NCBI GenBank assembly: GCA_964605545.1
Contig: CAZSCX010000001.1
Coordinates: forward strand, 16,148 to 80,147
Source of the DNA: an uncultured Gammaproteobacteria bacterium
GTDB lineage: Bacteria; Patescibacteriota; Microgenomatia; UBA12405
DNA length: 64,000 nucleotides
Direction of reading: 5' to 3'
Shown: piece by piece, positions 10,633-32,160 of the stretch
How the letters are laid out: every line of letters begins with the position of its first letter
Numbering within the stretch: the first letter of the stretch is position 1
Notes under the pieces: model-generated
Told to the model about the DNA's origin: nothing
The model's input: the letters and a program-made list of their open reading frames with translations, nothing else
Database searches by the model: none
Position numbers and translations under genes: made by a program

Positions 10633-13314
10633 ATGAAAAAGTGTGCCGGATTAGCGCAAATTCCTTTGATGTTGGGATTGTTGCTAATGGCAGTGGCGAT
10701 ACCGGTAGTATCTCAATTGACAAAAAATAGTCAAGAAACAAGAAATCGAGCCCAGAGTATGCCGATAACTTATTACCGATTGATAGGTGATCAGTGTGTT
10801 GTGGCTGGAATTTTTTTAACGATTGACGAATGCCAGCAGGTAGTTAACGGGACTTGTTATGAGAATAGTAATTGTGAGAGCGGTGGAGAGGATGAGCCAA
10901 CGGCGACTCCTGATCCGATATCTAGATATTATATATGCGATTCGAAACCAGGAATGAAAAGACTTTGTAGTATTTCTTATTCTAGTGAGTCTGCTTGCCA
11001 GGCAGCTATTATAGATTCAAACACTCAAAAATGTGTTAATGATTGTAATAAAGAATGTTTAAATACATATTCTGTATGTATTGATCCGGCAATATTGGAA
11101 AAATGTCCAAATGGATCTCGAACAATGGGTTGTGAGCAATTGCTATATTCGAATGAAGTGCCAATGGGAGAGATTGCCGGAATAAATTATTTCTATGCCG
11201 ATCCGCCCAATAATTTTTTGGCTCGTTGTTTTTCTTTTGATTATGATTTTGAAGCGTCACAGGGTCGCGGAGGGGTTTTTGGAGAACTTGAGTGTTATGA
11301 GAGGTTCGGGAAACAAAATTGTTTTATCAGTAATGGTGATTGTTCAAATGTTTGTCCAAAACCAAGTACTAATACAATTACGCCAGCGCCGCCATTTGAG
11401 GCGTATAGATGTATGGAAAGTACCTGCCAGAGACAGATTTATGCAAGTATTGACGAGTGTTTGAAGGAAAATGGATTTGCCGGTTGTTTTAATGGTTGTA
11501 GTGATCAATTTTGTAGTGTCGAACAGGAATTAACCGAATATTATTATTGTGATTATAATAGTGAAAATGTAATTGAGGGAAGTTCTTTTGTTACGGGTGA
11601 GTGTGGCCATAATAGTTTTAAAAATATTTATGAATGCTATTCTCAGCATGAGAAATGTACTTTATTGAATTGTGATGATAATCCTTTGGGAATGAATGAT
11701 AATTGTCAGAAAAGTGTGATTGAGGAGGATAAAAAATTAAAATTATATTTTTGTAGTCCAAGCGGATGTCGGTGGGAAATGTTTAAAAACTGGGTAGAGT
11801 GCGGTAAATTACATGGTGTTTGTTATGATGCTTTGAATCAATGTAAATTGTATCAAAGATGTGCGGTGGCACCGCCAACTGATGATATCTATTATTTGGA
11901 TATGTCGTACACAAAATATAGTGAACAGTGTCGAAAAAGTAGTTATAAATATCTTGAAGATTGCGAACTCTATGTAAATGGTTGCGAAGAAGGAACAACA
12001 CTTGATTATTGCAAAAGACAGCTGGGAGAAAATTTTGAAAATGCAAGATGTTTTATGAATGATTCTTTGTGTGGCAGGCCAGCGCAAGAACCTTTAACAA
12101 TAGAAGTGACACCAAAATTTTCCAGTAATCCGGTGAGAGCGAAAGAAGAATTTTCTTTGGAAATTTTTGCCGATGTAATCAATGACGGTCAAACAATGCC
12201 CGATTTTTCTATTAAAGTGTGTATGACTGATAATTTAACTCGGGTATTAGACAAAGACAATACAAGTGATTGTAGTTTTACAGTAGAAGATGTCGAGGAT
12301 GAAACCCAAAAATGTTATCAGATTAGTGGTAGTTGTGTTGCAAAAAGTGAGAAGACAGTGTTGGCTAGATTATGGTTTGTGTCTGAAGCGGCCAATACAA
12401 CTGTGACTTTTTCGGTTGATTGGCCTGGATATTTTGCCGATGAATTGATTTTAAATATTGGGAATGAAGCACGAAGTTGTGATACCGGAGAGAATGGAGA
12501 TGCCAATAAAAATGGGGAGATTACAATGGATGATCATGGTATTTGGGAAAATGAATATTTTATAGGAACTTCGATGACATCTGATTTTAACTGTGATTCT
12601 AAGATTGATCTTTTGGATTTTGAAATTTGGCGATCAGGATATTTCAATCGAAATATTTCGATAACACCTTCGCCAAAACCGGTTGAATGTACAAATGGTG
12701 AATGGAAATGTTTGGATGCGACTAGAGCCCAACAATGTGTTGAGGGTTTTTGGAAAAATACAATTTGTGGTAGTGGATATAAATGTGATACTGGTGTTTG
12801 TAAAGAAGTCCAGTGTATTTTTGAAAATGAAAAATATTCAATTGGAACGAGTATTTGTACCGATACTTATTTGCCATCTGTATGTAGATCAAATGGTTTG
12901 TTTGAGGAAGGAGAATGGTGTAATAGAGGTGATTGGTGCAAGGATGGGATATGTAAAGAAATTACTTGTACCAAGGGAGATCAGGAATATAAAGTAGGTG
13001 AATCTTATTGTGGTGTTCAATCAATATTTAAATGTGGTGGTAGTGGAAGTTTTTATTCTTATGCATGTAATGGAACTTTGGTACCAGGAGAAAGATCTTG
13101 TCAGTGTGTACCTTTTGAAAATAGTCCAACGCCGACACCACCGGTAGGCACGCCGGTAACCAAATGTTATCGGAGAGATAATTATGCAGAGATGAATGTA
13201 GGGGATACTTATTGTCAGGACGATATATTTTATTTGTGTCAGAGTAACGGTATTTTGTATGAACATCAATGTATTAATGGTTGTTTAGGAGATGAATGTG
13301 CTAGTGAAATATAA
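10633..13314 (+). CDS. very Cys-rich secreted/surface protein (893 aa) with pilin-like leader and internal dockerin-like Ca-loops
   Basis: MKKCAG-LAQIPLMLGLLLMAVAIP leader and SQETRNRA motif. Carries an internal dockerin-like pair (NGDANKNGEITMDD ... DFNCDSKIDLLDFEIWR) and C-terminal C..G.W..C repeats. Confidence 0.5.
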   Translation: MKKCAGLAQIPLMLGLLLMAVAIPVVSQLTKNSQETRNRAQSMPITYYRLIGDQCVVAGIFLTIDECQQVVNGTCYENSNCESGGEDEPTATPDPISRYYICDSKPGMKRLCSISYSSESACQAAIIDSNTQKCVNDCNKECLNTYSVCIDPAILEKCPNGSRTMGCEQLLYSNEVPMGEIAGINYFYADPPNNFLARCFSFDYDFEASQGRGGVFGELECYERFGKQNCFISNGDCSNVCPKPSTNTITPAPPFEAYRCMESTCQRQIYASIDECLKENGFAGCFNGCSDQFCSVEQELTEYYYCDYNSENVIEGSSFVTGECGHNSFKNIYECYSQHEKCTLLNCDDNPLGMNDNCQKSVIEEDKKLKLYFCSPSGCRWEMFKNWVECGKLHGVCYDALNQCKLYQRCAVAPPTDDIYYLDMSYTKYSEQCRKSSYKYLEDCELYVNGCEEGTTLDYCKRQLGENFENARCFMNDSLCGRPAQEPLTIEVTPKFSSNPVRAKEEFSLEIFADVINDGQTMPDFSIKVCMTDNLTRVLDKDNTSDCSFTVEDVEDETQKCYQISGSCVAKSEKTVLARLWFVSEAANTTVTFSVDWPGYFADELILNIGNEARSCDTGENGDANKNGEITMDDHGIWENEYFIGTSMTSDFNCDSKIDLLDFEIWRSGYFNRNISITPSPKPVECTNGEWKCLDATRAQQCVEGFWKNTICGSGYKCDTGVCKEVQCIFENEKYSIGTSICTDTYLPSVCRSNGLFEEGEWCNRGDWCKDGICKEITCTKGDQEYKVGESYCGVQSIFKCGGSGSFYSYACNGTLVPGERSCQCVPFENSPTPTPPVGTPVTKCYRRDNYAEMNVGDTYCQDDIFYLCQSNGILYEHQCINGCLGDECASEI

Positions 13315-14437
13315 AAATATATTATTGATGTTGGGGTTGTTGATAGTAATGGTGGTAAGTTTAGTATTGATTAAAAGGCAACAGGATTTGAGAAGAGGAG
13401 CGGCGGGTTTAAAGACTGCTTTGTTGATTTTGAGCCCGGAGTCGGTAGGGGCAACTATTGGCGATAATTTTGATATTAATTTTTCAGTGAGTACCGAATC
13501 GACTATGTCGGCAGCAAAACTGAACATTTGTTATCCGACTAATATTGATTTGGAGAGTCAAAATACTGAATTGGCAGATTTTAATTTGTATGTAAATGCG
13601 GTGGGAGAATCAGGGGGAGAAAAGTGTGTTGAGGTGGTATTGACGGGAATTGCCAGTGACGATAAATTACCAAGTAAATTTATTAAATTATTAAAATTAA
13701 ATTTTGTAGCCAGACAGAGTGGTAGAGGGACGGTCAAAGTTGATGTCACAAAATCGCAGATGGTTGGTGTAGGGGGAGAAATTGCTATTGATTCAGGAGT
13801 AAATGAGGTAGTGGTGAGTGTAAATGATGAAAATGGTCAGGGAGGTGGCGGAGAAACGCCGACTTTAGAACCAACACCTTTTATGAAATATTGGAAGTGT
13901 GATCCGGTAACAATGGTATGTGAAGAAATTAATCCTGATGAGTGTTTGTTGATTGGAGAGGAGTGTTTGGTAAATGAGAATTGTCCGACTGATTACACTT
14001 GTCTTGAGATGACAATTACACCGACATCGCCAATAGTAACAACGACACCGATAGTTGAAATGAAATATTGGATCTGTGATGAAGCCACTAAAATATGTGA
14101 GGAAGTAAGTGAAACGGTGTGTAATTTGGATTCAAATTGCAAGATTAGTATTGATTGTCCAGATGGATACACTTGTTCTGTAATTACGATTACCAAAACT
14201 CCAGTACCAGTTGGATGTCAGGATTGTAAATCTTTAGATCCTGAATATAGTGGCAATGGGAGAAAAGGCGGAGATTATAATTGTGATGCGGTTGTTAATG
14301 GAACTGATTTTGTAATTTGGCGGAGAGAAGCTTTAGATAAAATTATGAGGTATGATTGTTGGCAGGCTGATGGTAATGATGACGATAAGGTATCATTAAT
14401 TGATTATTCTTTGTGGAGGGAATGGTATTTAAAGTAG
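13292..14437 (+). CDS. surface protein: N-anchor, cohesin-like domain, 2x eight-Cys module, C-terminal dockerin-like domain
   Basis: Leader ...LIKRQQDLRRGAAG and a cohesin-like segment (IKLLKLNFVARQSGRGTVKVDV). Two YWxCDxxTxxCEE...CPDGYTC modules. The C-terminus is YNCDAVVNGTDFVIWRREAL...DGNDDDKVSLIDYSLWREWYLK. Confidence 0.5.
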   Translation: MNVLVKYKNILLMLGLLIVMVVSLVLIKRQQDLRRGAAGLKTALLILSPESVGATIGDNFDINFSVSTESTMSAAKLNICYPTNIDLESQNTELADFNLYVNAVGESGGEKCVEVVLTGIASDDKLPSKFIKLLKLNFVARQSGRGTVKVDVTKSQMVGVGGEIAIDSGVNEVVVSVNDENGQGGGGETPTLEPTPFMKYWKCDPVTMVCEEINPDECLLIGEECLVNENCPTDYTCLEMTITPTSPIVTTTPIVEMKYWICDEATKICEEVSETVCNLDSNCKISIDCPDGYTCSVITITKTPVPVGCQDCKSLDPEYSGNGRKGGDYNCDAVVNGTDFVIWRREALDKIMRYDCWQADGNDDDKVSLIDYSLWREWYLK

Positions 14438-14477
14438 TGCTACTTGATATTATGCTAATATTAATTGATAATTATTT

Positions 14478-16304
14478 ATGATGTTTGATAAAAAGAATTT
14501 GGCTAATGTGGTAACAGCAGTGTTTTTGTTTACAGCGTTGATGGTGACTGGTTTGGCAGTAAAGAGAACTTTGGATATGAGAAATAGGGCAGCGACGACA
14601 GGGACAAAATTTTATATTGATCCGGCTAGTGTGGAATTAAAAGTGGGAGAGACAAAAGAATTTGCTGTTTATGTCGATACTTCTGATACCGGAGAAAAAG
14701 TAGCTTTTGTGGAAGGGCAGTTGTGTTATGGTCCAAAAATTAAAATTGCCAGTCAGTCGGCTGATGTTTATAAACCACAGGAAGAATATTTTAATGATGT
14801 TGACCTAATTAAGGGCAAGAGAGCGGAAGATATCGTCGATGGTACAACGGCTGGAGTGAAGTGTTTAAATTTTGCCTTAAGTTCGGCTAGTGTTACATCA
14901 GATAATTTAAAAAGCGGAGTAGTAAAAACTTTAATCGTTAGATTTACTGGGGTGGAAACAGGTAGCGAAAAAGTTAGTTTTACCCAAGATCCATTAAAGA
15001 CTTATTATAATAATAATTTAAGTGATGAGCCTGGAATTATTGCTGCTTATACCGATTCAGAAATTACGGTGGTGACACCAAGCGAGGGAAGTGAATCATT
15101 GATTACTCTTGATGGTTCAAAATTGGCAACTAAAGTTGGTGAAACCGGAGAAGTAATAGTAAAACTTGATACTTCGTCATCATCTAGAGAAGTCGATGGA
15201 TTTCAGGCGACTGTTTGTTATGGAAAGGAATATAAAATTGGAAATACCTTGGCAGATGTAACAGTGGCCAATAGTACCAGCAAGGGTTTATCGAGCATTT
15301 TCAGACCAATTACAGTTATTCCGAAGACTGATGGTAGTGGGACATGTGCAACAATAGCAATGAGAGCTTCGGCTGAAGATGGAGTTGAATTGCCTTCTGG
15401 TTCTTTTGATGTTTTGAGAATAAAACTGGAAGCTGTTATAGCTGGCAAAGGGACGGTTTATTTAGATAAAGAGCAATGTGAAGTGAGTGGACCAAGTGTG
15501 CCCGGCAAGGGAAATGCGATTACTCACGATATTGGATCGGCTGTAGCTTATGAAGTGCTTTCTGATGGAGGAAAATTTTGGCAATGTAATGAAACAACAA
15601 GAATTTGTGAGGAAATAAGTGAAACTACATGTAATTTGATTGATAACTGTATCCGTAGTGGAGATTGTCCTGTAGGTTATACTTGTCCGAGTACAACCGA
15701 TACACCGAAACCAACACCAACAGATACACCGGAGGAAACTGGTTTGATATTTAATTTTAAAATGACTTTTCAAGGTTTAATGTCAAATGCCTCGGAATGT
15801 GGTGAGAAATGGAATAATTTAAAAATTAAATTAGTTGACAGTAAAGGTAAAGAAAGTCCTTTGATGGATGTAGCTATTTCACCGGAAGATGCTTTGTCTA
15901 TGGCTGTAGAACCGATGGTTTTTAAAGGAAAAGTATATTTGGGTGAATATGTGCCGGAAGGAGATGTTTTTGCTTTGATGCGGGGGCCAATTCATATTAC
16001 CGATAAATATGGTATGGATGCACAAAACGGTGAATACAATATTTATTTGGGTAAACTTAATGGAATGACGGAAAATTTGGAAACGACAAAATTATTTGAT
16101 TTTACAAAATATGCTTTGAGAGGCGGTGATGTCGATGCCAATGATATGCTCAATGGGGCAGATTATACAAAGATTAAAGATAGTTTAAGTTGTACGGAAA
16201 GTACTTGTTTAAATTCTGATATTAATGGTGATTGTGTAGTTAATGCAGCCGATACTACATTTTTTATAGATAATATTAAAATACGCAATGGCAAATTATA
16301 CTAA
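14478..16304 (+). CDS. surface protein: N-anchor, two cohesin-like domains, eight-Cys module, C-terminal dockerin
   Basis: Leader ...VKRTLDMRNRAATTG and cohesin-like strands (KTLIVRFTGVETGSEKVSF). C-terminal dockerin pair GDVDANDMLNGADYTKIK / DINGDCVVNAADTTFFI. Confidence 0.5.
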   Translation: MMFDKKNLANVVTAVFLFTALMVTGLAVKRTLDMRNRAATTGTKFYIDPASVELKVGETKEFAVYVDTSDTGEKVAFVEGQLCYGPKIKIASQSADVYKPQEEYFNDVDLIKGKRAEDIVDGTTAGVKCLNFALSSASVTSDNLKSGVVKTLIVRFTGVETGSEKVSFTQDPLKTYYNNNLSDEPGIIAAYTDSEITVVTPSEGSESLITLDGSKLATKVGETGEVIVKLDTSSSSREVDGFQATVCYGKEYKIGNTLADVTVANSTSKGLSSIFRPITVIPKTDGSGTCATIAMRASAEDGVELPSGSFDVLRIKLEAVIAGKGTVYLDKEQCEVSGPSVPGKGNAITHDIGSAVAYEVLSDGGKFWQCNETTRICEEISETTCNLIDNCIRSGDCPVGYTCPSTTDTPKPTPTDTPEETGLIFNFKMTFQGLMSNASECGEKWNNLKIKLVDSKGKESPLMDVAISPEDALSMAVEPMVFKGKVYLGEYVPEGDVFALMRGPIHITDKYGMDAQNGEYNIYLGKLNGMTENLETTKLFDFTKYALRGGDVDANDMLNGADYTKIKDSLSCTESTCLNSDINGDCVVNAADTTFFIDNIKIRNGKLY

Positions 16305-16737
16305 GGCTTTTACTTTGGTGGAGTTGTTGGTAGCGATGACAATTATTATGGTACTGACAATTGTGGCGGTGGTAAATTATGGTAGTGTCCAAAAAAATGC
16401 CAGAGATTCAAAAAGAAAGGCTGATTTAGAAAAAGTGAGGGTGGCGTTGGAAATGTATAAACAGGATCATGATGGATGTTATCCGCCAAATACCAATACT
16501 TTGGATGACGAGGGTTATTTAGATATTGTGCCAAGAACTGATCCGAAAGGACAGCCGTATTGTTATATATTTGCTGGATCTGCTTGTGGGTCACCAGCAG
16601 TAGGAAATACGTCTTATTCTTTGTATACAAGTATGGAAAATGAGAAAAATGAATCTTCATCTTTTGATGCTTTTACTTGTATTGGAGATGGTGGTCTTAC
16701 ATTGGAAAATACAAATTATGGAGTTAGTAATCCTTAA
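16288..16737 (+). CDS. type IV pilin / T2SS pseudopilin (PulG/GspG-like)
   Basis: Class III signal: basic leader then A/G-FTLVELLVAMTIIMVL. Followed by a GspG-like SVQKNARDSKRKADLEKVRVALEMY. Confidence 0.75.
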   Translation: MANYTKAFTLVELLVAMTIIMVLTIVAVVNYGSVQKNARDSKRKADLEKVRVALEMYKQDHDGCYPPNTNTLDDEGYLDIVPRTDPKGQPYCYIFAGSACGSPAVGNTSYSLYTSMENEKNESSSFDAFTCIGDGGLTLENTNYGVSNP

Positions 16738-16740
16738 AAT

Positions 16741-17352
16741 ATGAAAAAAAATAAAGGCTTGGCTCAAATTCCATTGATAATTGGTTTGATGGTAGTGGCG
16801 GTGGCTATTCCAATGATCAAAAATATATCAATGAAAAAAGAAAAGACTAAAAATATTGTTTCTGAGGAAAAGGTCGTCGAAAAAAAGATGAAAAAAGTTG
16901 AGGCAAAAATGTTTTTGGAACCAAAGGATATAAATTTAAAAGTTGGAGAAAAAAAGAAAATTAAGATAATAGTTGATACAAGTGAGGGAAAAAGGAAGGT
17001 TGATATTGCCAGGGCAGTGTTGTGTTGGAGTGGGGGATTGGCAATAGGTGATATTGAGAAAGATATTGTTTTAGATAAATCTTTTTTTGATGGTTTTGTT
17101 TTTAAAAATCCTGTTAAGGTGGAAGGGTTCGATTGTATTGATATAGTTGCTAATTCACAAAAGAGAACTAATGAATTGAATTCCGGTAAAATGACTTTGG
17201 CTGAAGTTGTATTTGTGGCTACAGAAAAAATGGAAGGAGGGGTGTTTACTTTTGATTCTGTTTTAAGTGAAGTTTCTGGTCCTGCTAATGAAAATGGCGA
17301 TTATGGGATTCAATTAGGGGAATTTGAAAAATTTATTTATCAGGTTAAATAG
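16741..17352 (+). CDS. pilin-like-leader protein with single cohesin-like domain
   Basis: MKKNKG-LAQIPLIIGLMVVAVAIP leader and a cohesin-like body (MTLAEVVFVATEKMEGGVFTFD). Confidence 0.45.
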   Translation: MKKNKGLAQIPLIIGLMVVAVAIPMIKNISMKKEKTKNIVSEEKVVEKKMKKVEAKMFLEPKDINLKVGEKKKIKIIVDTSEGKRKVDIARAVLCWSGGLAIGDIEKDIVLDKSFFDGFVFKNPVKVEGFDCIDIVANSQKRTNELNSGKMTLAEVVFVATEKMEGGVFTFDSVLSEVSGPANENGDYGIQLGEFEKFIYQVK

Positions 17353-17355
17353 GCC

Positions 17356-19848
17356 GTGAAGAAGTGTCTATTTCTTTTTTTGTTTTTAGGTTTATTTTTG
17401 GCACCGTCAGTATTGGCGGAAGAGAATTACGATGGTTATTTAATTAAGTATAAGAGTGGAAAAATTGAGAAAAGTGCTACTAAACCGATGAATATAATGA
17501 GCGAGGGAGAGGAAAGTGATATTAAGTTTATTCAACCGAATTATATTTATGAAACGTGTGAAATTAGCGAGAACGATAAATATTGGTATTTAAAAAATAC
17601 CGGCCAAATATTTCAAGAAAAAAGTGGGGTTGGTATAAAAGGGAGGTCAGGGGTGGATTTAGGAAAAGAGGCAGCCGATGAACTAACAAGAAATGAGAGT
17701 AAACAAGACATAATTGTGGCCGTCTTGGATTTGGGGTTGGATTACAATGACACGATATTTACTGGGAAATTATGGAATGGAGAGAATTGTAAAAATGAGT
17801 TGGGGGAAACGATGGGAGGATGTAAAAATGGTTATGATTTTGTAAATAACGATAAAGATCCTTTGCCAAATAGTAGTGAAGATCATGGTACTCATGTGGC
17901 GGGGATAGTGGCATCAATTGCACCGAATGCGAAATTAATGATATTGAGAGTAGGGGCTGGGGGAACGATGCCGGCAGAAGCTATAAGCCGGGCAATTGAT
18001 TTTGCCAAAGTCAATGGGGCGAAGGTTATTAATGCTAGTTTTGCCTCTTCAAAAGGATCTGATGGAAAATATCCAGATATTTTTGATTTATTGATGTACG
18101 ATTCAATTAAAAATTTTGATGGACTTTTCATCAATGCGGCAGGAAATGAAAATACCAATATCGATACAGGAGTGACCGGCGGGAGACCGTTTCCGGCATC
18201 GTTAAAATATGGAATGGGAGGTTTTAACGAGCCATTGAAAAATATTTTTGTAGTTTCGGCAACGAATTATTATGATGATATTACTTATTTTTCCAATTTT
18301 GGTAAAGATACAGTAGATATCGCAGCAATGGGAGCAGGTATTTATGGAGTGAGTAATAACGGTGGTAGGGTTTATTATCAGGGGACTTCGATGGCGACAC
18401 CGATGGTTTCCGGAGTGGCGGCTTATTTGTTAGGCTTGAGACCAAGTATGAGTGTGGCCGAATTAATTTCTTTGATTTCCGGAAGCGGAATTAAGGCTGA
18501 GGGAGTGAAGGGGATGGTGTTAAGTGGAAGGAGATTAAATTTGGAAACGGCAGTGAGAAAAATGAAAAATATGGAATGGGATAGGGAAAGCAAGGGAAGT
18601 GAAGGGGTAAAAAGATTGAGTGACGGAAAAATAGGAGGAGGAATTTTTATGGAAATAAACAGTAAATATTTACCGGAATTTTTGTATCTCTATTTATCAG
18701 ATATGTCCAATTCGTTGCGATTGACAAGATGCAGTGAAATGAAATGCGAGAGTGTTAGTGAGACAAAGGAATTGTTAAAAGGAGGATTAAATCCAATTGC
18801 GTTTTCTTTGACAGCTGATGATCGGCCAATAATTTTGTCAGGGGGAACTTTTAGTTTATTAAAAATTTGTAAAGATAAAGATTGTATTGAATACAAAGAT
18901 GTGGGAAGTGGTAATTATGGAGTTAATGTATCAATTAATGGAGAAATAGATGTCGATAGCAAGGGTAGAATAGTCTGGACTTTTTATACGGCGGATAGAA
19001 ACTGGGTGATTTTGAATAGATGTGATGATGCGCAATGCACTAGTTACCAATCTTGGAAGACGGCTTCAATGATATCAAATGATTCAGAAGCGGCGTTGGA
19101 TTTAAAAATAGATAAAAGTGATCGAATATTTTTGGCATACAACGAACAAATTTCGGTTAAAAAATTAATTAAGTGTGATGATAATTTAAGCGATAGTTGT
19201 GATTTGTTGGGCACAGATAATCAATCAATTTATGGCTATGGAAATGCTTTGGCGATAGATAAAGATGACAATCTTTATTGGCTTTTACCGGCTAGTGGTG
19301 GTCTTAAGTTAAGTAGGTGTTTAAATGGTGATTGCCAGATAATAAATTCATTGATATCGGTGTCGGTTGATAGTGGGTCTTTGTTTATGAGTAAATTAAA
19401 AATGGTAATGAATGTTGGCGGAGTACCAATGATAACGATAGGTGATGATGGTGATAAATATGGAGTAAAAATAATTAAATGTAAAGACAAAAATTGTAGT
19501 CAGAGTGAGACGGTGATAATTGACAATCAATATGGTGTAGGGGAAAGTATGAGAATAAAAAGTGGGGCGGGAGGAATGGGTGGAGTGGCTTATTTGGATA
19601 CATTGTCGGCTGATTTGAAATATCATAGTTTTCTGAATTATTTTCCAGTGAAGTGTAGTGAGAATTATTTTGGTAAAAATCAAGGTGATTATAATTGCGA
19701 TAATTTAATTACTGGGGGAGATTATATTGTTTGGAGGAGAGAATTTTTGGATAAAAAAATTGGAGAAAAATTTGAGTCAGATGGAGATGGAGATGGTAGA
19801 TCTAGTCTGAGTGATTATTCGTTATGGAGAGAAGAGTATTTGAAATAA
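17356..19848 (+). CDS. subtilisin-like serine peptidase (S8) with C-x4-C repeat region and C-terminal dockerin-like domain; GTG start
   Basis: Catalytic triad contexts VAVLDLGLD, HGTHVAGIVAS and GTSMATPMVSG. Six [KR]C..x..C[ST/Q] repeats. C-terminus GDYNCDNLITGGDYIVWRREFLDK...DGDGDGRSSLSDYSLWREEYLK. Confidence 0.8.
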   Translation: MKKCLFLFLFLGLFLAPSVLAEENYDGYLIKYKSGKIEKSATKPMNIMSEGEESDIKFIQPNYIYETCEISENDKYWYLKNTGQIFQEKSGVGIKGRSGVDLGKEAADELTRNESKQDIIVAVLDLGLDYNDTIFTGKLWNGENCKNELGETMGGCKNGYDFVNNDKDPLPNSSEDHGTHVAGIVASIAPNAKLMILRVGAGGTMPAEAISRAIDFAKVNGAKVINASFASSKGSDGKYPDIFDLLMYDSIKNFDGLFINAAGNENTNIDTGVTGGRPFPASLKYGMGGFNEPLKNIFVVSATNYYDDITYFSNFGKDTVDIAAMGAGIYGVSNNGGRVYYQGTSMATPMVSGVAAYLLGLRPSMSVAELISLISGSGIKAEGVKGMVLSGRRLNLETAVRKMKNMEWDRESKGSEGVKRLSDGKIGGGIFMEINSKYLPEFLYLYLSDMSNSLRLTRCSEMKCESVSETKELLKGGLNPIAFSLTADDRPIILSGGTFSLLKICKDKDCIEYKDVGSGNYGVNVSINGEIDVDSKGRIVWTFYTADRNWVILNRCDDAQCTSYQSWKTASMISNDSEAALDLKIDKSDRIFLAYNEQISVKKLIKCDDNLSDSCDLLGTDNQSIYGYGNALAIDKDDNLYWLLPASGGLKLSRCLNGDCQIINSLISVSVDSGSLFMSKLKMVMNVGGVPMITIGDDGDKYGVKIIKCKDKNCSQSETVIIDNQYGVGESMRIKSGAGGMGGVAYLDTLSADLKYHSFLNYFPVKCSENYFGKNQGDYNCDNLITGGDYIVWRREFLDKKIGEKFESDGDGDGRSSLSDYSLWREEYLK

Positions 19849-19868
19849 TGTTAATATTTATTATATAA

Positions 19869-21605: not shown

Positions 21606-21632
21606 ATGTTGAATATGTAATAATGAATTAGG

Positions 21633-23198: not shown

Positions 23199-23241
23199 TG
23201 AGAAACTTTACATTAATAAATTTATTATGTAATAATTATTT

Positions 23242-24006: not shown

Positions 24007-24015
24007 TAGTATAAA

Positions 24016-25311: not shown

Positions 25312-26783
25312 AAAAGTTGGTATTACTGGTAGTGTTTGTATTTTTTTTAAGTTTTGGTAAGGTGATTTTAGCGGAAACTTGTAGCCCAACATGGGTGTCT
25401 TTGGATAAGATATACACTGGGGGAATTTTTTTGGATATAGGGAAAGATAATAAACCTATGGTTCTTTATACAGAGTATATAAAAACAGGATCAGTGAATG
25501 GATCGCGTTTTTTAAAATGTACATCGAATGATTGCAAAAGTTTTAATGATATTAATTTTGATGGTCTTTTCCAGTGGTGGAGTGGAGGGGCAGGAAATTT
25601 TTCTGATGGAAGCGTTGCTTTTGTAATGGTTACTAATAATATGGATATGTATTTTGTGAAATGTAGTGATGATAAGTGTTCCAATTATACAAAGATTTTG
25701 TTCAAAAAAGATATTGTTATGGATAGAGATAATACTAATTATGAAATTAAAGCTAATTCTCCTAGTCAAGTAGTAGTTGATGGAAATGATTTACCATTTT
25801 TTTATTTTACACAGAGTTTTGTTTATGGAAGTGGAACCCAAGGAGATCCGTATATCGATTTGTATTTAGTGCGATGTAGTAAGAAGGATTGTAGTGAATA
25901 CAAGGTGAATAAGATTGATAAGATTTTAAATGTACCCAATGATTCTGTTACAGGTACAATAGATAGTGAAAATAAACTGATTATTTTTCATACCATTGGT
26001 GATCAGCAATTGATTTTGAATTATAATGGGACAAAAACATTAATCGATGAGGCTGCGTATCAATGTACCAATAGAAGCGAATTGGGTTTTTTATCGATGT
26101 ATTTGGGAAATGATGGTAATCCGGTTTTAAATTATATTAAGAGGGTTGGAAGTGGTGATGGTTGTACTAATAAATATATTACGGTTTTTTGTAAAAATAA
26201 AACTTGTACAGAAAAAAATGTAATAGATACCGTAAAAGGTATTAATATGAAAAAAGGGAGAGAAGGATATCCGGTTTATGAATATGTAGATAAATACAAC
26301 AGCGGAGTTATTGTTTGTAAAAATGCCGATTGTTCGGAAAAAATTCAAAGATCGGTTTTGACCGATTGTAATCCGGATTTTAATCTTTGTCCGCGTTTTG
26401 TAGATTTTGAATTAGATAATGAATTCAAACCGGTGTTTTTAATTAACCGATGGGTTTCTGGGTTGGGTCATTATGTACTGGATATTTACCGATGCTGTAC
26501 AGTCGATTGTGGGACAACATTTGAACCTCTTAATTGGTATGGGACATGTAAAAACGTTGTGGATGAAGCAAGAGGGTGTACCAAGTGTGAAAGTGATAGT
26601 TATCAGGGAATGAATCGTTGGGGTGGGGATTATAACTGCAGCGGAGATTTGACGACAGGTGATTATATTGTTTGGAGAGATGAATTTTTGAAAAAAGGAA
26701 CAGAGAGAAATGCCGATGGTGATTGTGACGGAAAAACGAGTTTGTCAGATTATTCAAAGTGGAGAGAGGAATATTTGAAGTAA
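25287..26783 (+). CDS. secreted C-x4-C repeat protein with C-terminal dockerin-like domain (paralog A)
   Basis: Sec-type signal ...VILA-ETCSP. Repeats FLKCTSNDCKSF, YFVKCSDDKCSNY, YLVRCSKKDCSEY, VFCKNKTCTEK, VCKNADCSEK. C-terminus GDYNCSGDLTTGDYIVWRDEFLKK...DGDCDGKTSLSDYSKWREEYLK. Confidence 0.5.
   Translation: MERRVSKMKKLVLLVVFVFFLSFGKVILAETCSPTWVSLDKIYTGGIFLDIGKDNKPMVLYTEYIKTGSVNGSRFLKCTSNDCKSFNDINFDGLFQWWSGGAGNFSDGSVAFVMVTNNMDMYFVKCSDDKCSNYTKILFKKDIVMDRDNTNYEIKANSPSQVVVDGNDLPFFYFTQSFVYGSGTQGDPYIDLYLVRCSKKDCSEYKVNKIDKILNVPNDSVTGTIDSENKLIIFHTIGDQQLILNYNGTKTLIDEAAYQCTNRSELGFLSMYLGNDGNPVLNYIKRVGSGDGCTNKYITVFCKNKTCTEKNVIDTVKGINMKKGREGYPVYEYVDKYNSGVIVCKNADCSEKIQRSVLTDCNPDFNLCPRFVDFELDNEFKPVFLINRWVSGLGHYVLDIYRCCTVDCGTTFEPLNWYGTCKNVVDEARGCTKCESDSYQGMNRWGGDYNCSGDLTTGDYIVWRDEFLKKGTERNADGDCDGKTSLSDYSKWREEYLK
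26502..26567. repeat. 66-nt stretch identical to 28017..28082 (also 26179..26230 = 27697..27748), marking a recent tandem duplication or gene conversion
   Basis: Direct comparison of the two paralog genes; the shared stretch is gtcgattgtgggacaacatttgaacctcttaattggtatgggacatgtaaaaacgttgtggatgaa. Confidence 0.8.
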
Positions 26784-26810
26784 GCCATAAGTGTGTCATA
26801 ATTAAATGAA

Positions 26811-28298
26811 ATGAGGAAGTTATTGTTTTTATTATGTTTAGGAATTTTTTTGGGTACAGGTGGTGTGGTGTTGGCAGAAACATGTAGTCCGACAGAGGTG
26901 TCTTTGAATAGGGAAAAAACTGGAGGAATTTTTTTGAATATTGGTAAAGATAATAAACCTGTGGTTCTTTATACGGAATATAAGACGAGTATGGTTACAG
27001 AATCGAGTTTTTTAAAATGTACGACTGACGATTGTAGTGATTTTGGGGAAGTTGATTTTTCTTCGATATTTCCTTTAGAAAATGGGGGAGTAGGTGTGTT
27101 TAGCGATGGAAGCGTGGCTTTTATGATGGTGAGTGAGGGTGAAAACAATAATATGTATTTTGTAAAATGTAGCGATAATAAATGTACTAGTTATACAAAA
27201 ACTTTATTTAAAAGTGATTTTGTTAAAGATAGTAATTTGAATATTTTTCGTAATTCTCCAGCCCAAGTTTTTATTGACAAGAACGATTTGCCTAATTTTT
27301 ATTTTCGGCAAAGTTTTACCGATGGAACTAGAATGGATCAATATTTGGATATATATCTAGTAAGATGTAGTAAAAAGGATTGTAGTGAATACAAAGTAAA
27401 TAAGATAGATAAAGTAATAGCTGAGGCAGCTATTGACGGTTTTTGGGGGCAAACTTTTGTGGTAGATAATGATGACAAAACTGTTTTGGAGTATTTGATG
27501 TTGGAATACGAAACAGGAGATTTGCAATTGGTTTTAAATTATGATGGAACAAAAACGATAATTGATGAAGCCGAGAATAGGTGCTACAACAGAAGTGAAT
27601 TGATGTTGCCGTCGATGTATTTAGGAAACGATGGTAATCCTGTTTTAAATTATATGAAAAGAGTTGGGAGTGCCGATAGTTGCACAACCAAATACATTAC
27701 GGTTTTTTGTAAAAATAAAACTTGTACAGAAAAAAATGTAATAGATACGGTTAAGGGTTTTAAAATGAGAAAAGGAAGGGAGGGTTATCCGGTTTATGAA
27801 TATTTGGATGGAGGAGACAGGGGGGTTATAGTTTGTAAAAATGCCGATTGTTCGGAAAAAACACAAAAGGCAATTTTGACCGGATGTAATCCTAATTTAA
27901 ATGTTACGTGCCCAGGTTTTGTTGATTTTAAATTGGACAATGAATATAAACCGGTTTGGTTGATAAATAGGGTGATTTCTAGTAAGAATATTTTGTCAAT
28001 TTATCGATGTTGTACGGTCGATTGTGGGACAACATTTGAACCTCTTAATTGGTATGGGACATGTAAAAACGTTGTGGATGAAACAAGAGGGTGTACTAAG
28101 TGTGAAAGTGATAATTATCAAGGAATTAATCGTTGGGGAGGGGATTATAATTGTAGTGGGGATTTAACAGCCGGGGATTATATTGTTTGGCGAGATGAAT
28201 TTTTTAAAAAGGGAACGGAGAGGGAGGCGGATGGGGATTGTGATGGTAAAACGAGTCTTTCCGATTATTCAAAATGGAGAGAGGAGTATCTTAAATAA
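26811..28298 (+). CDS. secreted C-x4-C repeat protein with C-terminal dockerin-like domain (paralog B, tandem duplicate)
   Basis: Colinear with 25287..26783 and shares perfect 52-nt and 66-nt nucleotide stretches with it. Confidence 0.5.
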   Translation: MRKLLFLLCLGIFLGTGGVVLAETCSPTEVSLNREKTGGIFLNIGKDNKPVVLYTEYKTSMVTESSFLKCTTDDCSDFGEVDFSSIFPLENGGVGVFSDGSVAFMMVSEGENNNMYFVKCSDNKCTSYTKTLFKSDFVKDSNLNIFRNSPAQVFIDKNDLPNFYFRQSFTDGTRMDQYLDIYLVRCSKKDCSEYKVNKIDKVIAEAAIDGFWGQTFVVDNDDKTVLEYLMLEYETGDLQLVLNYDGTKTIIDEAENRCYNRSELMLPSMYLGNDGNPVLNYMKRVGSADSCTTKYITVFCKNKTCTEKNVIDTVKGFKMRKGREGYPVYEYLDGGDRGVIVCKNADCSEKTQKAILTGCNPNLNVTCPGFVDFKLDNEYKPVWLINRVISSKNILSIYRCCTVDCGTTFEPLNWYGTCKNVVDETRGCTKCESDNYQGINRWGGDYNCSGDLTAGDYIVWRDEFFKKGTEREADGDCDGKTSLSDYSKWREEYLK

Positions 28299-28341
28299 TT
28301 TGATTGATTGACTTAGTATTTTAGGAATGTTTTAATTAAAT

Positions 28342-30822
28342 ATGAGTTTTAATGTACGAAGATGTGGATTGATACAATTACCTATTTTGATTGGAATTTT
28401 AATAATCTCAGTAGCAATTCCTGCCTTGACGGTTTTGGTACAAGAGAATCAAGATGTTAGAAATCGAGCGGCGAATGGGGATAAAATAATTTGTGAAAGA
28501 TGTAGTAAAAATAGTAGTTGTGAATGGGTAGTGTATGAAGTTGATGCTTCTGTGGGGTGTGATGTTTTATATGAATCACAGATGACTATTATTAGTAGGA
28601 CGGCAAAATGCGAATGTGGAAAAGTTGCTAATGCAACTGATTCTAGATGTGGAACAGTGAGTACCGGTGGGTGTACAGGGACAAAATGTAATGCCGCTGG
28701 CGATACATGTTGTATTAATTCTTTTAATGGTGGAACAATACCATATTGTGAAGCTGGTTTTGTCTGTGATATGAATTCAAGTTCAAGTTTATTTGGAAAG
28801 TGTATTAAACCTTGGAGTAGTACTCAACAATGTAATAGGTGTAGTAGTAATAGAAATTGTTATCGAGCCTATTTTGAAGCTCCTTATCCGGGAGATTGTG
28901 CTACCATAGAACCTCTTTCTACTTCTCTTATTAAATATGTTTATGAGGCTGGTTGTTGTGCTGGTGGGGGAGATACTACTCCTCCGACTCAAAAATGGTA
29001 TTACTGTGATGGGACACAGAGTACTTGTAAAGTAGATACCAATACTTATGCTGATTCAGCCAGTTGTTCGGCGGCTCATGGAGGTAGAACTTGTTATTAT
29101 TATGATGAAGAGGCTGGATGTAATAGTTTATGTGCAGCGGCGGATTATAAATATTATTGTGATACAACATGTAAAAAGACAACTGAAAAGTTTGCTGGTG
29201 CGGATTGTTCGGCAGTTTTGGGAAAAGCTTGTTATTCGACCAGTAATTGTAATGGAGTATGTCCAACTTCTGGAACTTCTTGTTCAGGGAGTGAAGGTAC
29301 AGTTCCAAGTGGATCTTGGGGGTGTCAAAGTTTGAGTACGAGAGCCTATTGTTTAAATGGTGTGTGGTCAAGCTCGAATAGTGAATATTGTCAGTACGAT
29401 TGTAAAGATGGTAGATGTAATTCAGCTCCGCCTACAACATGTAATGATTATCAGGGAAATCCAATTTCGGCTGGTTTTTGGGGTTGTAAGACAGCAACTA
29501 CAAGAGCGTGGTGTAATTCAGGTGTTTGGATAAATGATTATAATTGTGCTACGAATGGTGGTACTTGTGTGAATGGTGAGTGTCAAACTGTGGCAGCATG
29601 TAGTAAAGTTGGCGATACTTGTTGTTTAGGTGGTGCTACTGGGAAATTTTGTAATAATAGCTTAGTCTGTGGTAGCGATAGCAAATGTGCAAGTTCTTGT
29701 GGCATAGAAAATTACCCGTGTTGCTATAATCCGAATGGTGCTGGTACTTGTACAAACAGTTTCGGCTCTCCTTATTTAAAGTGTGTGGCTGACAAGTGTG
29801 TTAAAGATCCAGAACGATGTTTTTTGAATTTTGGTACTGCTACTACTGTGATATATGAGGATACTTTTTGCTATCGAGAGAGTGGAAAACCAGAGACGAT
29901 AAGAAAGTGTGAATATGGTGGTAGTACTACTTTTGTGACTAATTGTAGTTTTAGTTGTATGGCTGGTAGAAATATAGGAGAGCCTCTTGTTGCGGAATGT
30001 TGTGGTGGCTTGAATGAGACTTGTTGCTCTGGCACTGAGTGTTCTCCTGGTTTGAGTTGTATTAGTGGGGTTTGTAAGAATCCGACAACAAATGTTTGTG
30101 GAAATAGACCAGATGGGACAGCGAGAGTGCCTGGAGAATCATGGTGTGTAGATAATAAATTATATGAATGTATTAACCCAACAGGTACTTTGATAAATCT
30201 TAAAACTACTACTTGTATCGATGGTTGTATAAAACTTACCAATACTACAGCAAAATGTAATGTGGTGAAGAAATATTGGCAACATGATGCAGTGGCGAAT
30301 GGCTATAATTGTTCGACCGATAGTCGTTGGATGTGTACAGAAACTACTACAGTAACTAAGTTTGCCGATAAAGCTAGTTGTGAAAATGATGTTGGTTGTG
30401 ATGTTACTTTTTATAGATATACATGTAATCCTGTTACCGGTAATTGGAGTTGTGTAAATACACCGCAAACCGGCCAGCCTTCTTATTCGGAAGTAACTTA
30501 TGGATCTGCGGCAGCGGCGGAACAAAAATGTATTACTGATGATCCAAGTGATTTGTGCAAGAAAACATCTACTTGTTCAGTATGTTCAGAGGAAAAGAAT
30601 GGTTATGTTGGACCAGATAAGAGCGGAGGAGACTATAATTGTGATGGAGTTTTGACAACAGGTGATTATATTGTTTGGCGTGGAGAGTATTTGGATTATG
30701 TTTTAAAACGGGTTAACAAAAATAGATATGTGGCCAATGGTAATTGTAAAAATAATCCTGATTTGTATTATTTAACTGGAACTAGAGATTATTCTTTATG
30801 GAGAGAAAATTATTTAAAATAA
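28342..30822 (+). CDS. hyper-cysteine-rich surface protein (826 aa, ~100 Cys) with pilin-like leader and variant C-terminal dockerin
   Basis: MSFNVRRCG-LIQLPILIGILIISVAIP leader and NQDVRNRAANGD. Repeated GSWGCQ..C.NGVW / GFWGCK..C.SGVW modules. C-terminus GDYNCDGVLTTGDYIVWRGEYLD...NGNCKNNPDLYYLTGTRDYSLWRENYLK. Confidence 0.5.
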   Translation: MSFNVRRCGLIQLPILIGILIISVAIPALTVLVQENQDVRNRAANGDKIICERCSKNSSCEWVVYEVDASVGCDVLYESQMTIISRTAKCECGKVANATDSRCGTVSTGGCTGTKCNAAGDTCCINSFNGGTIPYCEAGFVCDMNSSSSLFGKCIKPWSSTQQCNRCSSNRNCYRAYFEAPYPGDCATIEPLSTSLIKYVYEAGCCAGGGDTTPPTQKWYYCDGTQSTCKVDTNTYADSASCSAAHGGRTCYYYDEEAGCNSLCAAADYKYYCDTTCKKTTEKFAGADCSAVLGKACYSTSNCNGVCPTSGTSCSGSEGTVPSGSWGCQSLSTRAYCLNGVWSSSNSEYCQYDCKDGRCNSAPPTTCNDYQGNPISAGFWGCKTATTRAWCNSGVWINDYNCATNGGTCVNGECQTVAACSKVGDTCCLGGATGKFCNNSLVCGSDSKCASSCGIENYPCCYNPNGAGTCTNSFGSPYLKCVADKCVKDPERCFLNFGTATTVIYEDTFCYRESGKPETIRKCEYGGSTTFVTNCSFSCMAGRNIGEPLVAECCGGLNETCCSGTECSPGLSCISGVCKNPTTNVCGNRPDGTARVPGESWCVDNKLYECINPTGTLINLKTTTCIDGCIKLTNTTAKCNVVKKYWQHDAVANGYNCSTDSRWMCTETTTVTKFADKASCENDVGCDVTFYRYTCNPVTGNWSCVNTPQTGQPSYSEVTYGSAAAAEQKCITDDPSDLCKKTSTCSVCSEEKNGYVGPDKSGGDYNCDGVLTTGDYIVWRGEYLDYVLKRVNKNRYVANGNCKNNPDLYYLTGTRDYSLWRENYLK

Positions 30823-30825
30823 AAT

Positions 30826-32160
30826 ATGACAAATAATAAAAATAAACTTTTTGTTTTATTAATAATATTGGCAGTATCTATTTTTGGGTCGGTAATGCTG
30901 ACAAGACAAACACAAGAGCTAAGAAGGAAGGCAGCTGATGGTTATATTCAATCTTTTGAACCAGTTTCAATAACTGGTATGAAAGTGGGAGGGACAGCGT
31001 CGGTAACTGTTTTAGCAGAAACACCTTTAGGTTTTAAATCGGCGACTATTCTGATTTGTTACCCTGATTATTTGAAGGAACTAACAAAGGATGATATTAA
31101 ATTATCGGATTATTTTACAATTGATTTACCGCCGATTCGAAGAGTTGATTTGGGTTATAGTGGAAAAATTTGTTCGGTAATAGAGGCGATGGTGAGTATA
31201 GATGATGCAACTAAAACTGGAGCGCCAGCAGGAATATCTCAGGTGGCGAAGCTTACTTTTACCGGAAATAAGGTTGGAACTGGTGGTAAGATAGAAGCAA
31301 TTATTGGTCCTGTTTCCGGTAGAGAATATGGTAAAACGACCGATAAGAATTTTAGATCATTGGTTTCCGGTGATTTTACAGACGGACAAGATAAAGTCTT
31401 TAGCACTGTTGGGTCTGTTGATATTAGTGTTGAAGGTGATAAGAAATATGTTAGAGGAGATTGTGATTTTAGTACTGGTAAATATGAATGTACAGAGAGT
31501 GCTAATGGGACTATGGATTTGGCTACTTGTGAGACAGATACAAATTGTTATGTTAAAGGTGATGATTATGTTTTGAAGTTTAGAGTTATTTTTCCAGGTG
31601 TTTGGCCGCAAAATAAATTTATTGATGGTTATGAAAAAGTTAGTTTATTGGTTGAATCAGCAGTTGGTACGACTTGGTTGGGAGATGTAACAATGACAAA
31701 GGTGGCAAAAGAAGAGACAACCGATATAAAAGACGGTGATATTCAATATCAGGTGTATCAGGCGTCGGTGCCATTGAAAGGTTTTAATTACAACAAGGAT
31801 TTAGCGGTAACTATAAAAGGAGTAAAGCATTTAGGAATGAGGTTTGGCGAAGATAATCAAAAAGGTTGCTATAGATCGATGATAGGAAAAATTGGTTCGA
31901 CTAATGCTTTAACAAAAGATGAGACTACAACACCTTTGTTTAACTTCATTAAAACTCCATTACCGGGCGGTGATGTTGATAATAATGATATTGTGAATGC
32001 GGCCGATTATTCTCAGGTTAAGTCAAAAATGTTGACTTGTGATAATGCCAAGTGTGGGGAGGATATTAATGGTGATGGAATTATAAATAGTACTGATGCC
32101 AGTTATATTAATTTAACAGTCTCTGACAAATGTGGAGACTGGTGGACTACAGGAGAATAA
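30826..32160 (+). CDS. surface protein with cohesin-like domain and C-terminal dockerin (DVDNND type)
   Basis: Leader ...LTRQTQELRRKAADG and cohesin-like AKLTFTGNKVGTGGKIEAII. C-terminus GGDVDNNDIVNAADYSQVKSK / DINGDGIINSTDASYIN. Confidence 0.5.
   Translation: MTNNKNKLFVLLIILAVSIFGSVMLTRQTQELRRKAADGYIQSFEPVSITGMKVGGTASVTVLAETPLGFKSATILICYPDYLKELTKDDIKLSDYFTIDLPPIRRVDLGYSGKICSVIEAMVSIDDATKTGAPAGISQVAKLTFTGNKVGTGGKIEAIIGPVSGREYGKTTDKNFRSLVSGDFTDGQDKVFSTVGSVDISVEGDKKYVRGDCDFSTGKYECTESANGTMDLATCETDTNCYVKGDDYVLKFRVIFPGVWPQNKFIDGYEKVSLLVESAVGTTWLGDVTMTKVAKEETTDIKDGDIQYQVYQASVPLKGFNYNKDLAVTIKGVKHLGMRFGEDNQKGCYRSMIGKIGSTNALTKDETTTPLFNFIKTPLPGGDVDNNDIVNAADYSQVKSKMLTCDNAKCGEDINGDGIINSTDASYINLTVSDKCGDWWTTGE

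Follow-up and report, generated by a model that had tools for sequence, protein, structure and literature searches.

Ten genes in a 64,000-nucleotide stretch of contig CAZSCX010000001.1 (assembly GCA_964605545.1; the whole stretch is called the window below) encode proteins that share a conserved N-terminal module, and a short polar motif behind the hydrophobic core most likely forms the C-terminal end of that module. The module would be lineage-specific and about 35-45 residues long, and it consists of a basic n-region, a hydrophobic run of 18-22 residues and a polar, helix-prone tail, (L-V)-Q-x-x-Q-[D/E]-x-R-x-[R/K]-A-[A/T/S]. The motif is real, widespread and strongly constrained and, to judge from the sequences, is an apparently undescribed N-terminal tag of Microgenomates surface proteins. 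We put the chance at about even that it marks an export-signal class specific to the lineage and cleaved off at or near its invariant alanine. The module would then serve one class of surface and secreted proteins, comprising dockerin-bearing proteins, adhesin-like Cys-rich proteins and a glycoside hydrolase of family GH39.

An open reading frame listing combined with a regular-expression scan located the motif at every gene for which the first-pass annotation of the window had listed it. That annotation had counted at least 11 proteins and listed ten, and ten true instances were found (window 9342-32160). Nine of them lie on the plus strand (genes 10633, 13292, 14478, 19869, 21633, 23242, 24016, 28342 and 30826), and the tenth belongs to the divergently transcribed GH39 hydrolase (9342-10607, minus strand). 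In all ten the motif takes the form [Q/A/L]-[D/E]-x-R-[R/N/K]-x-A-[A/V/Q/T] and stands directly behind the N-terminal hydrophobic run, with its arginine at residue 31-40, in agreement with the placement after the h-region that had been noted before. The ten modules are as follows (nt, nucleotides; aa, amino acids; R, the motif arginine with its residue number):

10503-10607, minus strand: N-terminal module (aa 1-35) of the GH39 glycoside hydrolase, gene 9342-10607; QDIRKDAT at nt 10503-10526, R31
10633-10755, plus strand: N-terminal module of an 893-aa Cys-rich protein, gene 10633; class i (KKCAG/LAQIPL...); QETRNRAQ at nt 10732-10755, R37
13292-13405, plus strand: N-terminal module of a 381-aa dockerin-bearing protein, gene 13292; QDLRRGAA at nt 13382-13405, R34; weak Dockerin_1 match
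14478-14594, plus strand: N-terminal module of a 608-aa protein, gene 14478; variant motif LDMRNRAA at nt 14571-14594, R35
19869-19976, plus strand: N-terminal module of a 578-aa Cys-rich cohesin and dockerin protein, gene 19869; QETRRRAA at nt 19953-19976, R32; Cohesin match
21633-21740, plus strand: N-terminal module of a 521-aa FG-GAP and dockerin protein, gene 21633; QEIRRKAA at nt 21717-21740, R32
23242-23367, plus strand: N-terminal module of a 254-aa protein, gene 23242; class i (RISG/AVQIPIL...); QDVRNLAA at nt 23344-23367, R38
24016-24126, plus strand: N-terminal module of a 431-aa Cys-rich dockerin-type protein, gene 24016; variant motif AELRRKAV at nt 24103-24126, R33
28342-28473, plus strand: N-terminal module of an 826-aa Cys-rich dockerin-type protein, gene 28342; class i (RRCG/LIQLPIL...); QDVRNRAA at nt 28450-28473, R40
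30826-30936, plus strand: N-terminal module of a 444-aa dockerin protein, gene 30826; QELRRKAA at nt 30913-30936, R33; Dockerin_1 match

The loose core of the motif, [DE]xRxxA, occurs 16 times in the window (62 genes, 20,352 aa), and 11 of these occurrences lie no more than 14 residues behind an N-terminal hydrophobic run; 2000 per-protein shuffles gave 0.09 on average and 2 at most. The enrichment is far beyond chance, and the motif is indeed commoner behind such runs than composition predicts. EWRYWA at 55131 stands behind the first helix of a multipass DUF5656 protein and is probably a chance match.

These counts also bear on an explanation that needs no specific function, in which the motif would be a leftover of the duplication of neighbouring genes or an effect of composition, with purine-rich, Shine-Dalgarno-like codons acting at the RNA level. 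The motif genes are neighbours, several of them are paralogous with common dockerin modules, and AGGA- or GGAG-like tetramers occur in six of the ten motif-coding stretches. An RNA-level pause was nevertheless rejected, as the other four stretches have no Shine-Dalgarno-like tetramer and the codons of the conserved residues vary synonymously (AGA, AGG and CGT for Arg; GCC, GCG and GCA for Ala). A DNA repeat or recombination cassette as the origin of the motif was likewise ruled out, since DNA repeats are confined to the dockerin-coding 3' ends, while the N-terminal coding segments gave merely two weak two-copy DNA matches. With synonymous codons and unrepeated N-terminal DNA, the conservation acts at the protein level. 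Moreover, the motif is kept in 121 GH39 orthologues that are 43-50% identical to the window protein, with the alanine three residues behind the arginine invariant, and it is found on unrelated passenger domains in hundreds of clusters. Cross-genome conservation, codon usage, enrichment and unrepeated DNA together effectively exclude a duplication leftover or an RNA-level effect, to which we give next to no credence.

In a position profile of 151 sequences anchored on the invariant arginine (position 0, 100%), conservation extends well back into the hydrophobic run. Ala at -15 (82%), Pro at -13 (86%), Leu at -8 (88%) and Val at -7 (72%) are followed by Gln at -6 (60%), Gln at -3 (94%) and Asp/Glu at -2 (97%), and behind the arginine come a variable residue at +1 (Asn/Arg/Ser), Arg/Lys at +2 (63%), Ala at +3 (98%) and Ala/Thr at +4 (83%). 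The information content is 3.3-4.3 bits at -3, -2, 0 and +3, 2.7 at +4, 1.1 at +5 and about 0.4 from +6 onward, and proline, with no case at +4, is tolerated from +5. The boundary of the module is therefore sharp, conservation ending abruptly past +4. The conserved positions (-15, -14, -11, -8, -7, -4, -3, 0, +3 and +4) lie on one helical face. The short eight-residue motif of the first-pass annotation is thus real, but the true unit is larger and keeps a fixed register about 15 residues back into the h-region (Pro -13, Leu -8); the Gln of that earlier consensus is upheld at -3 in the profile, yet it is dispensable in the GH39 family, where Ile, Leu or Val takes its place.

The uncharged runs measure 16-25 residues among 150 database relatives and are visibly shorter in the GH39 family. 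Two kinds of start lead into the same tail. Class i begins with the very conserved [KR]-x-G/[LFV]-[AV]-Q-[IL]-P-[LIV]-x-I-G-L-L (window members 10633, 23242 and 28342), and class ii with just Met-Lys-Lys and the helix. The class-i element, written as [KR]-x-G/[LA]-x-Q-[IL]-P-[LI]-x-x-G-[LI]-L, is found at 10633-10700, 16741-16810, 23242-23310 and 28342-28420, and it dominates the database relatives ('KGLAQIPLMIGLLIMAVAIPVATKLVQQNQDTRNRAA'). One of these four places has no polar motif:

16741-17352, plus strand: 203-aa protein with the hydrophobic class-i element (KNKG/LAQIPLIIGLMVVAVAIP) and without the polar motif

This gene scores 21.9 bits against the module profile, compared with 49-67 bits for members. 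As it has the class-i element without the polar motif, the two are separable.

The profile scan proposed in the first-pass annotation showed that the module recurs in related proteins. When 1.84 billion protein cluster representatives were searched with a profile of the ten N-termini and without a word index, 574 were retrieved at E<=1e-3; almost all of them matched over residues 1 to about 50, and their lengths ranged from 69 to 1245 aa. Word-indexed protein searches returned two near-identical fragments only with the ten N-termini and no match at E<=1 with a broader class-ii alignment; short diverse profiles do not pass this kind of search. A genome-collection scan with three sequences and an over-specific 10-residue pattern returned one locus. 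Named GH39 homologues come from Candidatus Shapirobacteria, Levybacteria and the 'Patescibacteria group'. Two of 20 cluster look-ups gave an organism name: one motif protein was annotated as Shapirobacteria and one fragment, outside which the N-terminus may fall, was labelled Magasanikbacteria. Other assemblies, GCA_964559645.1 among them, carry identical copies of the 19869 protein.

In eight of the nine homologue pairs compared, conservation is higher in the module than in the remainder of the protein, which, to go by these pairs, is the opposite of ordinary signal peptides. It is 68% identical between 10633 and the relative P0040 (rest of the protein 20%), 72% between 14478 and P0099 (rest 34%), 100% and 94% between 21633 and P0019 and P0025 (rest 35% and 38%) and 93% between 28342 and P0020 (rest 66%); the one exception is the 24016 pair, with 57% in the module and 82% in the rest. 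Syntenic orthologues of 30826 in four loci fetched from other genomes retain the motif as QELRRRAA (L005), QDTRRGAA (L007), QETRRGAV (L008) and QETRRSAY (L012), and five adjacent genes of locus L011 have near-identical modules ('...IPLTVF[IV]AQQQQETRQRAA'). Even degenerate forms of the motif preserve its Ala end (QKQAA, TQHAG, QGRAS).

The GH39 family gives the closest view of the constraint. In the 121 orthologues Ala +3 (A34) is invariant, and P18 (-13), D29 (-2) and R31 (0) are at least 90% conserved, on par with columns of the catalytic core. An AlphaFold2 model of the window protein computed with these orthologues (mean pLDDT, the predicted local confidence score, 93) has a single helix over residues 3-32 that runs through the h-region and the motif, followed by coil at residues 33-40, which includes A34, and by the first strand of the enzyme at residue 41. 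Ordinary signal peptidase may process this family, because a canonical small-x-small site (A-A/S-G↓T; the arrow marks the cleaved bond) follows the motif in 100% of the orthologues. In a published Microgenomates genome, no signal peptide was recognised by SignalP 5 on GH39 and other glycoside hydrolases, and they were deemed intracellular (PMC7143001). The module suggests that these hydrolases may instead be exported, and that the assignment may be an artefact of an unrecognised signal.

The cargo of the module points to the cell surface. A Pfam scan of 103 members identified dockerin (12), cohesin (5), fn3 (4), FG-GAP (3) and VWA (2-3) domains and one each of GH39, TIG, SdrD_B and PT-HINT. 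The known domains are exclusively extracellular or adhesin-type, although most members have no known domain, and the median cysteine content of the members is 7.6%. These passenger domains are mutually unrelated although the module is common to them. C-terminal sortase-type signals are present in four of 150 relatives (e.g. LPVTG in P0088 and LPKAG in P0148), and in most of the fetched loci the motif genes lie together with genes for cohesin or dockerin proteins. In contrast, two N-terminally anchored housekeeping enzymes of the window, S41 CtpA (41164) and HtrA (42360), do not have the motif. Enrichment, conservation and passenger domains together bear out the idea of a position-specific, strongly selected tag on extracellular proteins.

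Not all proteins of the cluster use the module. Four island proteins (17356, 25287, 26811 and 32782) have short classical A-x-A signal peptides of 21-24 aa, and the motif-type N-termini are about 12-15 residues longer than these. As both types coexist in one cluster, the organism has two distinct kinds of N-terminal signal. One of the four serves as a direct comparator:

32782-33474, plus strand: comparator cohesin protein with a classical signal peptide (KPVSA↓AARL) and a C-terminal LPKTG sortase signal; Cohesin and Gram_pos_anchor matches

When P0088, which combines a motif-type N-terminus with a cohesin domain and LPVTG, is aligned with this protein, the motif ends within 1-2 residues of the classical VSA↓A cleavage site. 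The first folded element follows the motif after only 5-7 residues, as seen for the GH39 strand at 41 after A34 and for the cohesin-like domains in 13292, 14478 and 30826. With no linker between the two, an uncleaved protein would be pressed against the membrane. A second unusually conserved signal region was seen in the orthologues with Pur_ac_phosph_N and dockerin domains (window 33471-34142; L005 2707-3420; L007 7981-8652; L012 6806-7540), which have a different conserved N-terminus, LLVGVLGV.GV.TARTYLSGA[SA], with a canonical S-G-A↓ end.

We favour a cleaved export signal because conservation stops abruptly at small residues, because the cargo (dockerin, cohesin, fn3, FG-GAP, VWA, TIG, PT-HINT, GH39) normally bears cleaved signal peptides, because no linker precedes the first folded domain, because the four relatives noted above pair the module with a C-terminal sortase-type signal, and because the alignment of P0088 with 32782 puts the motif end at a classical cleavage site. 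From this we infer an export role, a cut and its place, and a candidate reader. The hydrophobic part would drive Sec-type membrane insertion, after which a conserved factor would read the polar tail in its fixed register (Gln -3, Asp/Glu -2, Arg 0, Ala +3). By analogy with YSIRK or SipW-type signals, the most economical candidate for this reader would be an enzyme that resembles type I signal peptidase but has an altered or dedicated specificity; alternatively, it could be a targeting factor. The passenger would be freed at or within a few residues of the invariant alanine (A↓A), and the freed protein would be displayed via its C-terminal dockerin or, in some relatives, its sortase signal.

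Several observations weigh against such a cleaved signal. No canonical site lies between the h-region and the motif, and a canonical small-x-small site with its -1 residue at +5 to +8 is found in 54% of relatives, compared with 41% background. The idea that the two alanines provide position -3 of a canonical site lying 2-3 residues further on holds for GH39 and elsewhere comes down to this same difference. With cleavage at A(+3)↓A(+4), the -3 residue would be Asn, Arg, Lys, Ser or Gln, which is non-canonical. The conserved positions follow a helical (i, i+3/4, i+7) and not an extended (i, i+2) pattern, and the AlphaFold2 helix is continuous through the motif to +1. Classical substrates of type I signal peptidase do not bind in this way. 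Hydrophobic runs of 18-22 residues suffice for a stable membrane anchor, and one family with an N-terminal extension of 50-130 residues before the helix looks like a true type II anchor. The h-region sequence is itself conserved, especially in class i, an uncommon trait in signal peptides but a typical one in pilin-like assembly helices. Finally, no peptidase lies consistently beside the motif genes in the window and in the loci fetched from other genomes.

Most of these points fit an uncleaved signal-anchor with a juxtamembrane helix, whose conserved face would dock a partner helix and thereby keep the proteins at the cell surface, cluster them or assemble them there; we regard this as possible but, on balance, somewhat unlikely. 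The helical stripe of conserved positions would then meet a membrane protein or copies of the same helix, in keeping with the single modelled helix, the length of the hydrophobic runs and the lack of a general canonical cleavage site, and the N-terminus outconserves the passenger as it does in type IV pilins. The extended family (P0089, P0109, P0112 and P0130) is a small Cys-rich one in which an acidic, Pro-rich stretch (MDDLPK...EKPIEIGS.D) precedes the module, which would place a cytoplasmic domain ahead of the helix. On the other hand, proteins that carry a C-terminal sortase signal or a dockerin are normally set free from the membrane, the homologous cohesin-LPXTG protein has a classical signal that is cleaved at a position aligned with the end of the motif, the linker that an anchored protein would be expected to need is missing, and the anchored housekeeping enzymes do without the motif.

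Within this anchor explanation, class i might be pilin-like and be cut by prepilin peptidase after its Gly. The [KR]-x-G/A before [LFV]-[AV]-Q-[IL]-P in 10633, 23242, 28342 and 16741 resembles a class III cleavage site, with Gly/Ala after basic residues just before the helix, so that the dismissal of class III signals in the first-pass annotation may not extend to these genes. A type IV pilin-like gene lies within the island (16288-16737, MANYTKA/FTLVELLV...; 17-nt overlap with the 3' end of 14478-16304). The N_methyl model (PF07963), of which that gene carries a weak match, matches no motif protein, however, nor do Flp or TadE, and there is no Glu at +5. Class ii bears the motif without any Gly cleavage site, and in 16741 the class-i helix stands without the motif, which that helix therefore does not need.

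The register of the motif also allows a two-step shedding like that by eukaryotic S1P and S2P, which we consider improbable. After type II insertion, a secreted S8 subtilase would cut at R-x-x-A↓ (P4 Arg, P1 Ala) and the M50 protease RseP (8206-9255) would clear the Pro-containing stub. The specificity of subtilases typically rests on P1 and P4, with Arg at P4 in S1P-type enzymes; here the invariant Arg precedes the invariant Ala by exactly three residues, and a conserved helix Pro would promote cleavage by a site-2 protease. RseP is encoded directly upstream of the island in the window, L007 and L008, and the only peptidase inside the window island is indeed of the S8 type:

17356-19848, plus strand: S8 subtilase with a classical signal peptide (SVLA↓EE) and a C-terminal dockerin-like repeat; Peptidase_S8 match; generic subtilisin-like

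Against this stand the generic character of the enzyme and its absence from the equivalent motif clusters of L007, L008 and L012. No S8 enzyme is among the secreted peptidases listed for a related published genome, where C39, DegQ, S41 and M50 are the only ones (PMC7143001). The adjacency of RseP is probably incidental, as frr-rseP linkage is a common housekeeping arrangement. The first-pass annotation had raised co-occurrence with a specific peptidase, and in the gene neighbourhoods none recurs: the S8 subtilase is confined to window-type genomes, and RseP adjacency tracks frr-rseP synteny.

A further proposal, which we regard as doubtful, is a dedicated sorting system of Microgenomates and related bacteria of the Candidate Phyla Radiation (CPR). 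A dedicated peptidase or sorting enzyme other than the general LepB would read the Q-[D/E]-x-R-x-x-A face of the helix on the outer surface of the membrane, cleave at the invariant Ala and pass a large and quickly diversifying group of adhesin-like and dockerin proteins on to the cohesin scaffold of the cell surface. In its boldest version, by analogy, the tag could be PEXEL-like and serve delivery toward a host cell. The PEXEL/HT motif of Plasmodium (RxLxE/Q/D) and S1P-type R-x-x-L↓ sites are likewise short Arg-anchored motifs past a signal or anchor, read by a dedicated protease and sorting diverse exports; they are eukaryotic and differ in sequence, spacing and enzymes, and the resemblance would be conceptual only.

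The first-pass annotation had called the tag undescribed and set it apart from the Tat (twin-arginine), YSIRK, lipobox and SipW-cognate signals, and both statements hold against the databases and literature searched. Whole proteins and, at E<=10, isolated N-termini gave no N_methyl, Flp/TadE, YSIRK, SipW-cognate, Tat or lipoprotein match in Pfam and NCBIfam, and no publication describing the motif was found in full-text searches for motif strings and CPR signal-peptide descriptions. With classical Sec signals the ten window N-termini and the 150 relatives have in common a Lys/Arg-rich, basic n-region (e.g. MKKK, MRNNLKR, MTNNKNK) followed by a hydrophobic h-region. The twin-arginine sequence S/T-R-R-x-F-L-K is absent from the n-regions, and no Tat model matches. 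Tat c-regions with their 'Sec-avoidance' residues are similar in having basic residues between the hydrophobic core and an Ala-rich end, but the present h-regions are long and very hydrophobic and there is no twin-arginine. No Cys stands behind the h-region in any of the ten proteins, as the lipobox L-[AS]-[GA]-C would require; the Cys of 10633 and 28342 precedes the helix (KKCAG, RRCG).

Resemblance to YSIRK-G/S is one of principle. Both are lineage-restricted conserved motifs within the signal peptides of some surface proteins, occur across unrelated passengers and exist beside ordinary signals. YSIRK-G/S, known from staphylococcal and streptococcal surface proteins, is thought to select the secretion site or route and not to enable export as such. 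It stands at the n/h boundary and is followed by a normal A-x-A, whereas the present motif follows the core, has another sequence and no general A-x-A; the YSIRK-G/S sequence is absent, and the isolated N-termini gave 0 model matches at E<=10. The SipW-cognate (TasA/TapA-type) signals are also a special N-terminal class beside a general one and have a dedicated second signal peptidase. They show no sequence resemblance to the module, the SipW-dependent NCBIfam model matched neither whole proteins (E<=1) nor N-termini (E<=10), and no gene resembling SipW turned up in the window or among the loci examined. Class III (type IV pilin) signals share a hydrophobic helix that is better conserved than the C-terminal part and, with class i, the Gly/Ala after basic residues and a conserved Pro about 18 residues into the helix. 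They differ in that the present module has no Phe at +1 or Glu at +5 (Gln +3 and Pro +5 instead), that class ii begins directly with Met-Lys-Lys and the helix, and that conservation ends abruptly where pilins continue into a globular domain.

CPR bacteria (Patescibacteria) are ultra-small and mostly uncultured, and to our knowledge all cultivated members live attached to other microbes, so that surface proteins are likely central to their life. The tag is common to a large and fast-evolving surface set of cohesin-dockerin components, adhesin-like Cys-rich proteins and a glycoside hydrolase. A module profile would give a simple marker for the Microgenomates 'surfaceome' and would correct localisation and metabolic inferences, and phylogenetic profiling with the module would point to the reader enzyme, possibly a new signal-peptidase specificity or sorting enzyme. 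A dedicated sorting system, if true, would count as the N-terminal equivalent of sortases, exosortases and rhombosortases; should the module prove to be an ordinary signal peptide whose c-region is unusually conserved, it would still be a lineage-specific rule for predictors to learn.

Flanked by frr-rseP-GH39 on one side and yqeY-ybeY-dnaX-recR-cysS on the other, the motif genes make up an island. At the equivalent chromosomal position in L005, L007, L008 and L012 the cluster measures about 5 kb, compared with about 23 kb in the window (10633-34142), and the close relatives L001 and L002 differ in island gene content. The island holds a cohesin-dockerin system in a CPR bacterium. Dockerin-like C-termini (GDYNCDG...DYS.WREEYLK; 8-10 modules, DNA identity 61-88%) are encoded by the 3' ends (14270-30822) of genes 13292, 17356, 19869, 21633, 24016, 25287, 26811 and 28342, and also by 30826-32160 and 33471-34142; several cohesin or cohesin-like domains are present, together with the one LPKTG-anchored cohesin protein (32782-33474). 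Conserved N-terminal and dockerin ends that flank highly variable middles suggest that the island may have diversified by recombination.

Genes 25287-26783 and 26811-28298, both with the classical signal peptides mentioned above, are tandem paralogues with 74-88% DNA identity in blocks and no Pfam domain. Both contain repeated C-[ST]-x-x-x-C-[ST]-E-[YK] segments, which the S8 subtilase has in its C-terminal half as well. Locus L005 (CAYSLZ010000002.1) is labelled 'uncultured Gammaproteobacteria bacterium' and is syntenic with the Microgenomates island and its housekeeping flank; given this synteny, the label of that metagenome-assembled genome is probably wrong. The window has 35% G+C with 23.4% G versus 12.1% C, and its GC skew of +0.3 to +0.46 over most of the length drops to about +0.1 past 56 kb, where genes move to the minus strand. 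It thereby matches the extreme G/C strand disparity reported for the Microgenomates order UBA1400 (PMC7143001). A VirD4/TrwB-type coupling protein (TrwB_AAD_bind, TraG-D_C) is encoded at 2712-4865 on the minus strand, and in L006 a row of T4SS_pilin genes lies near a motif protein.

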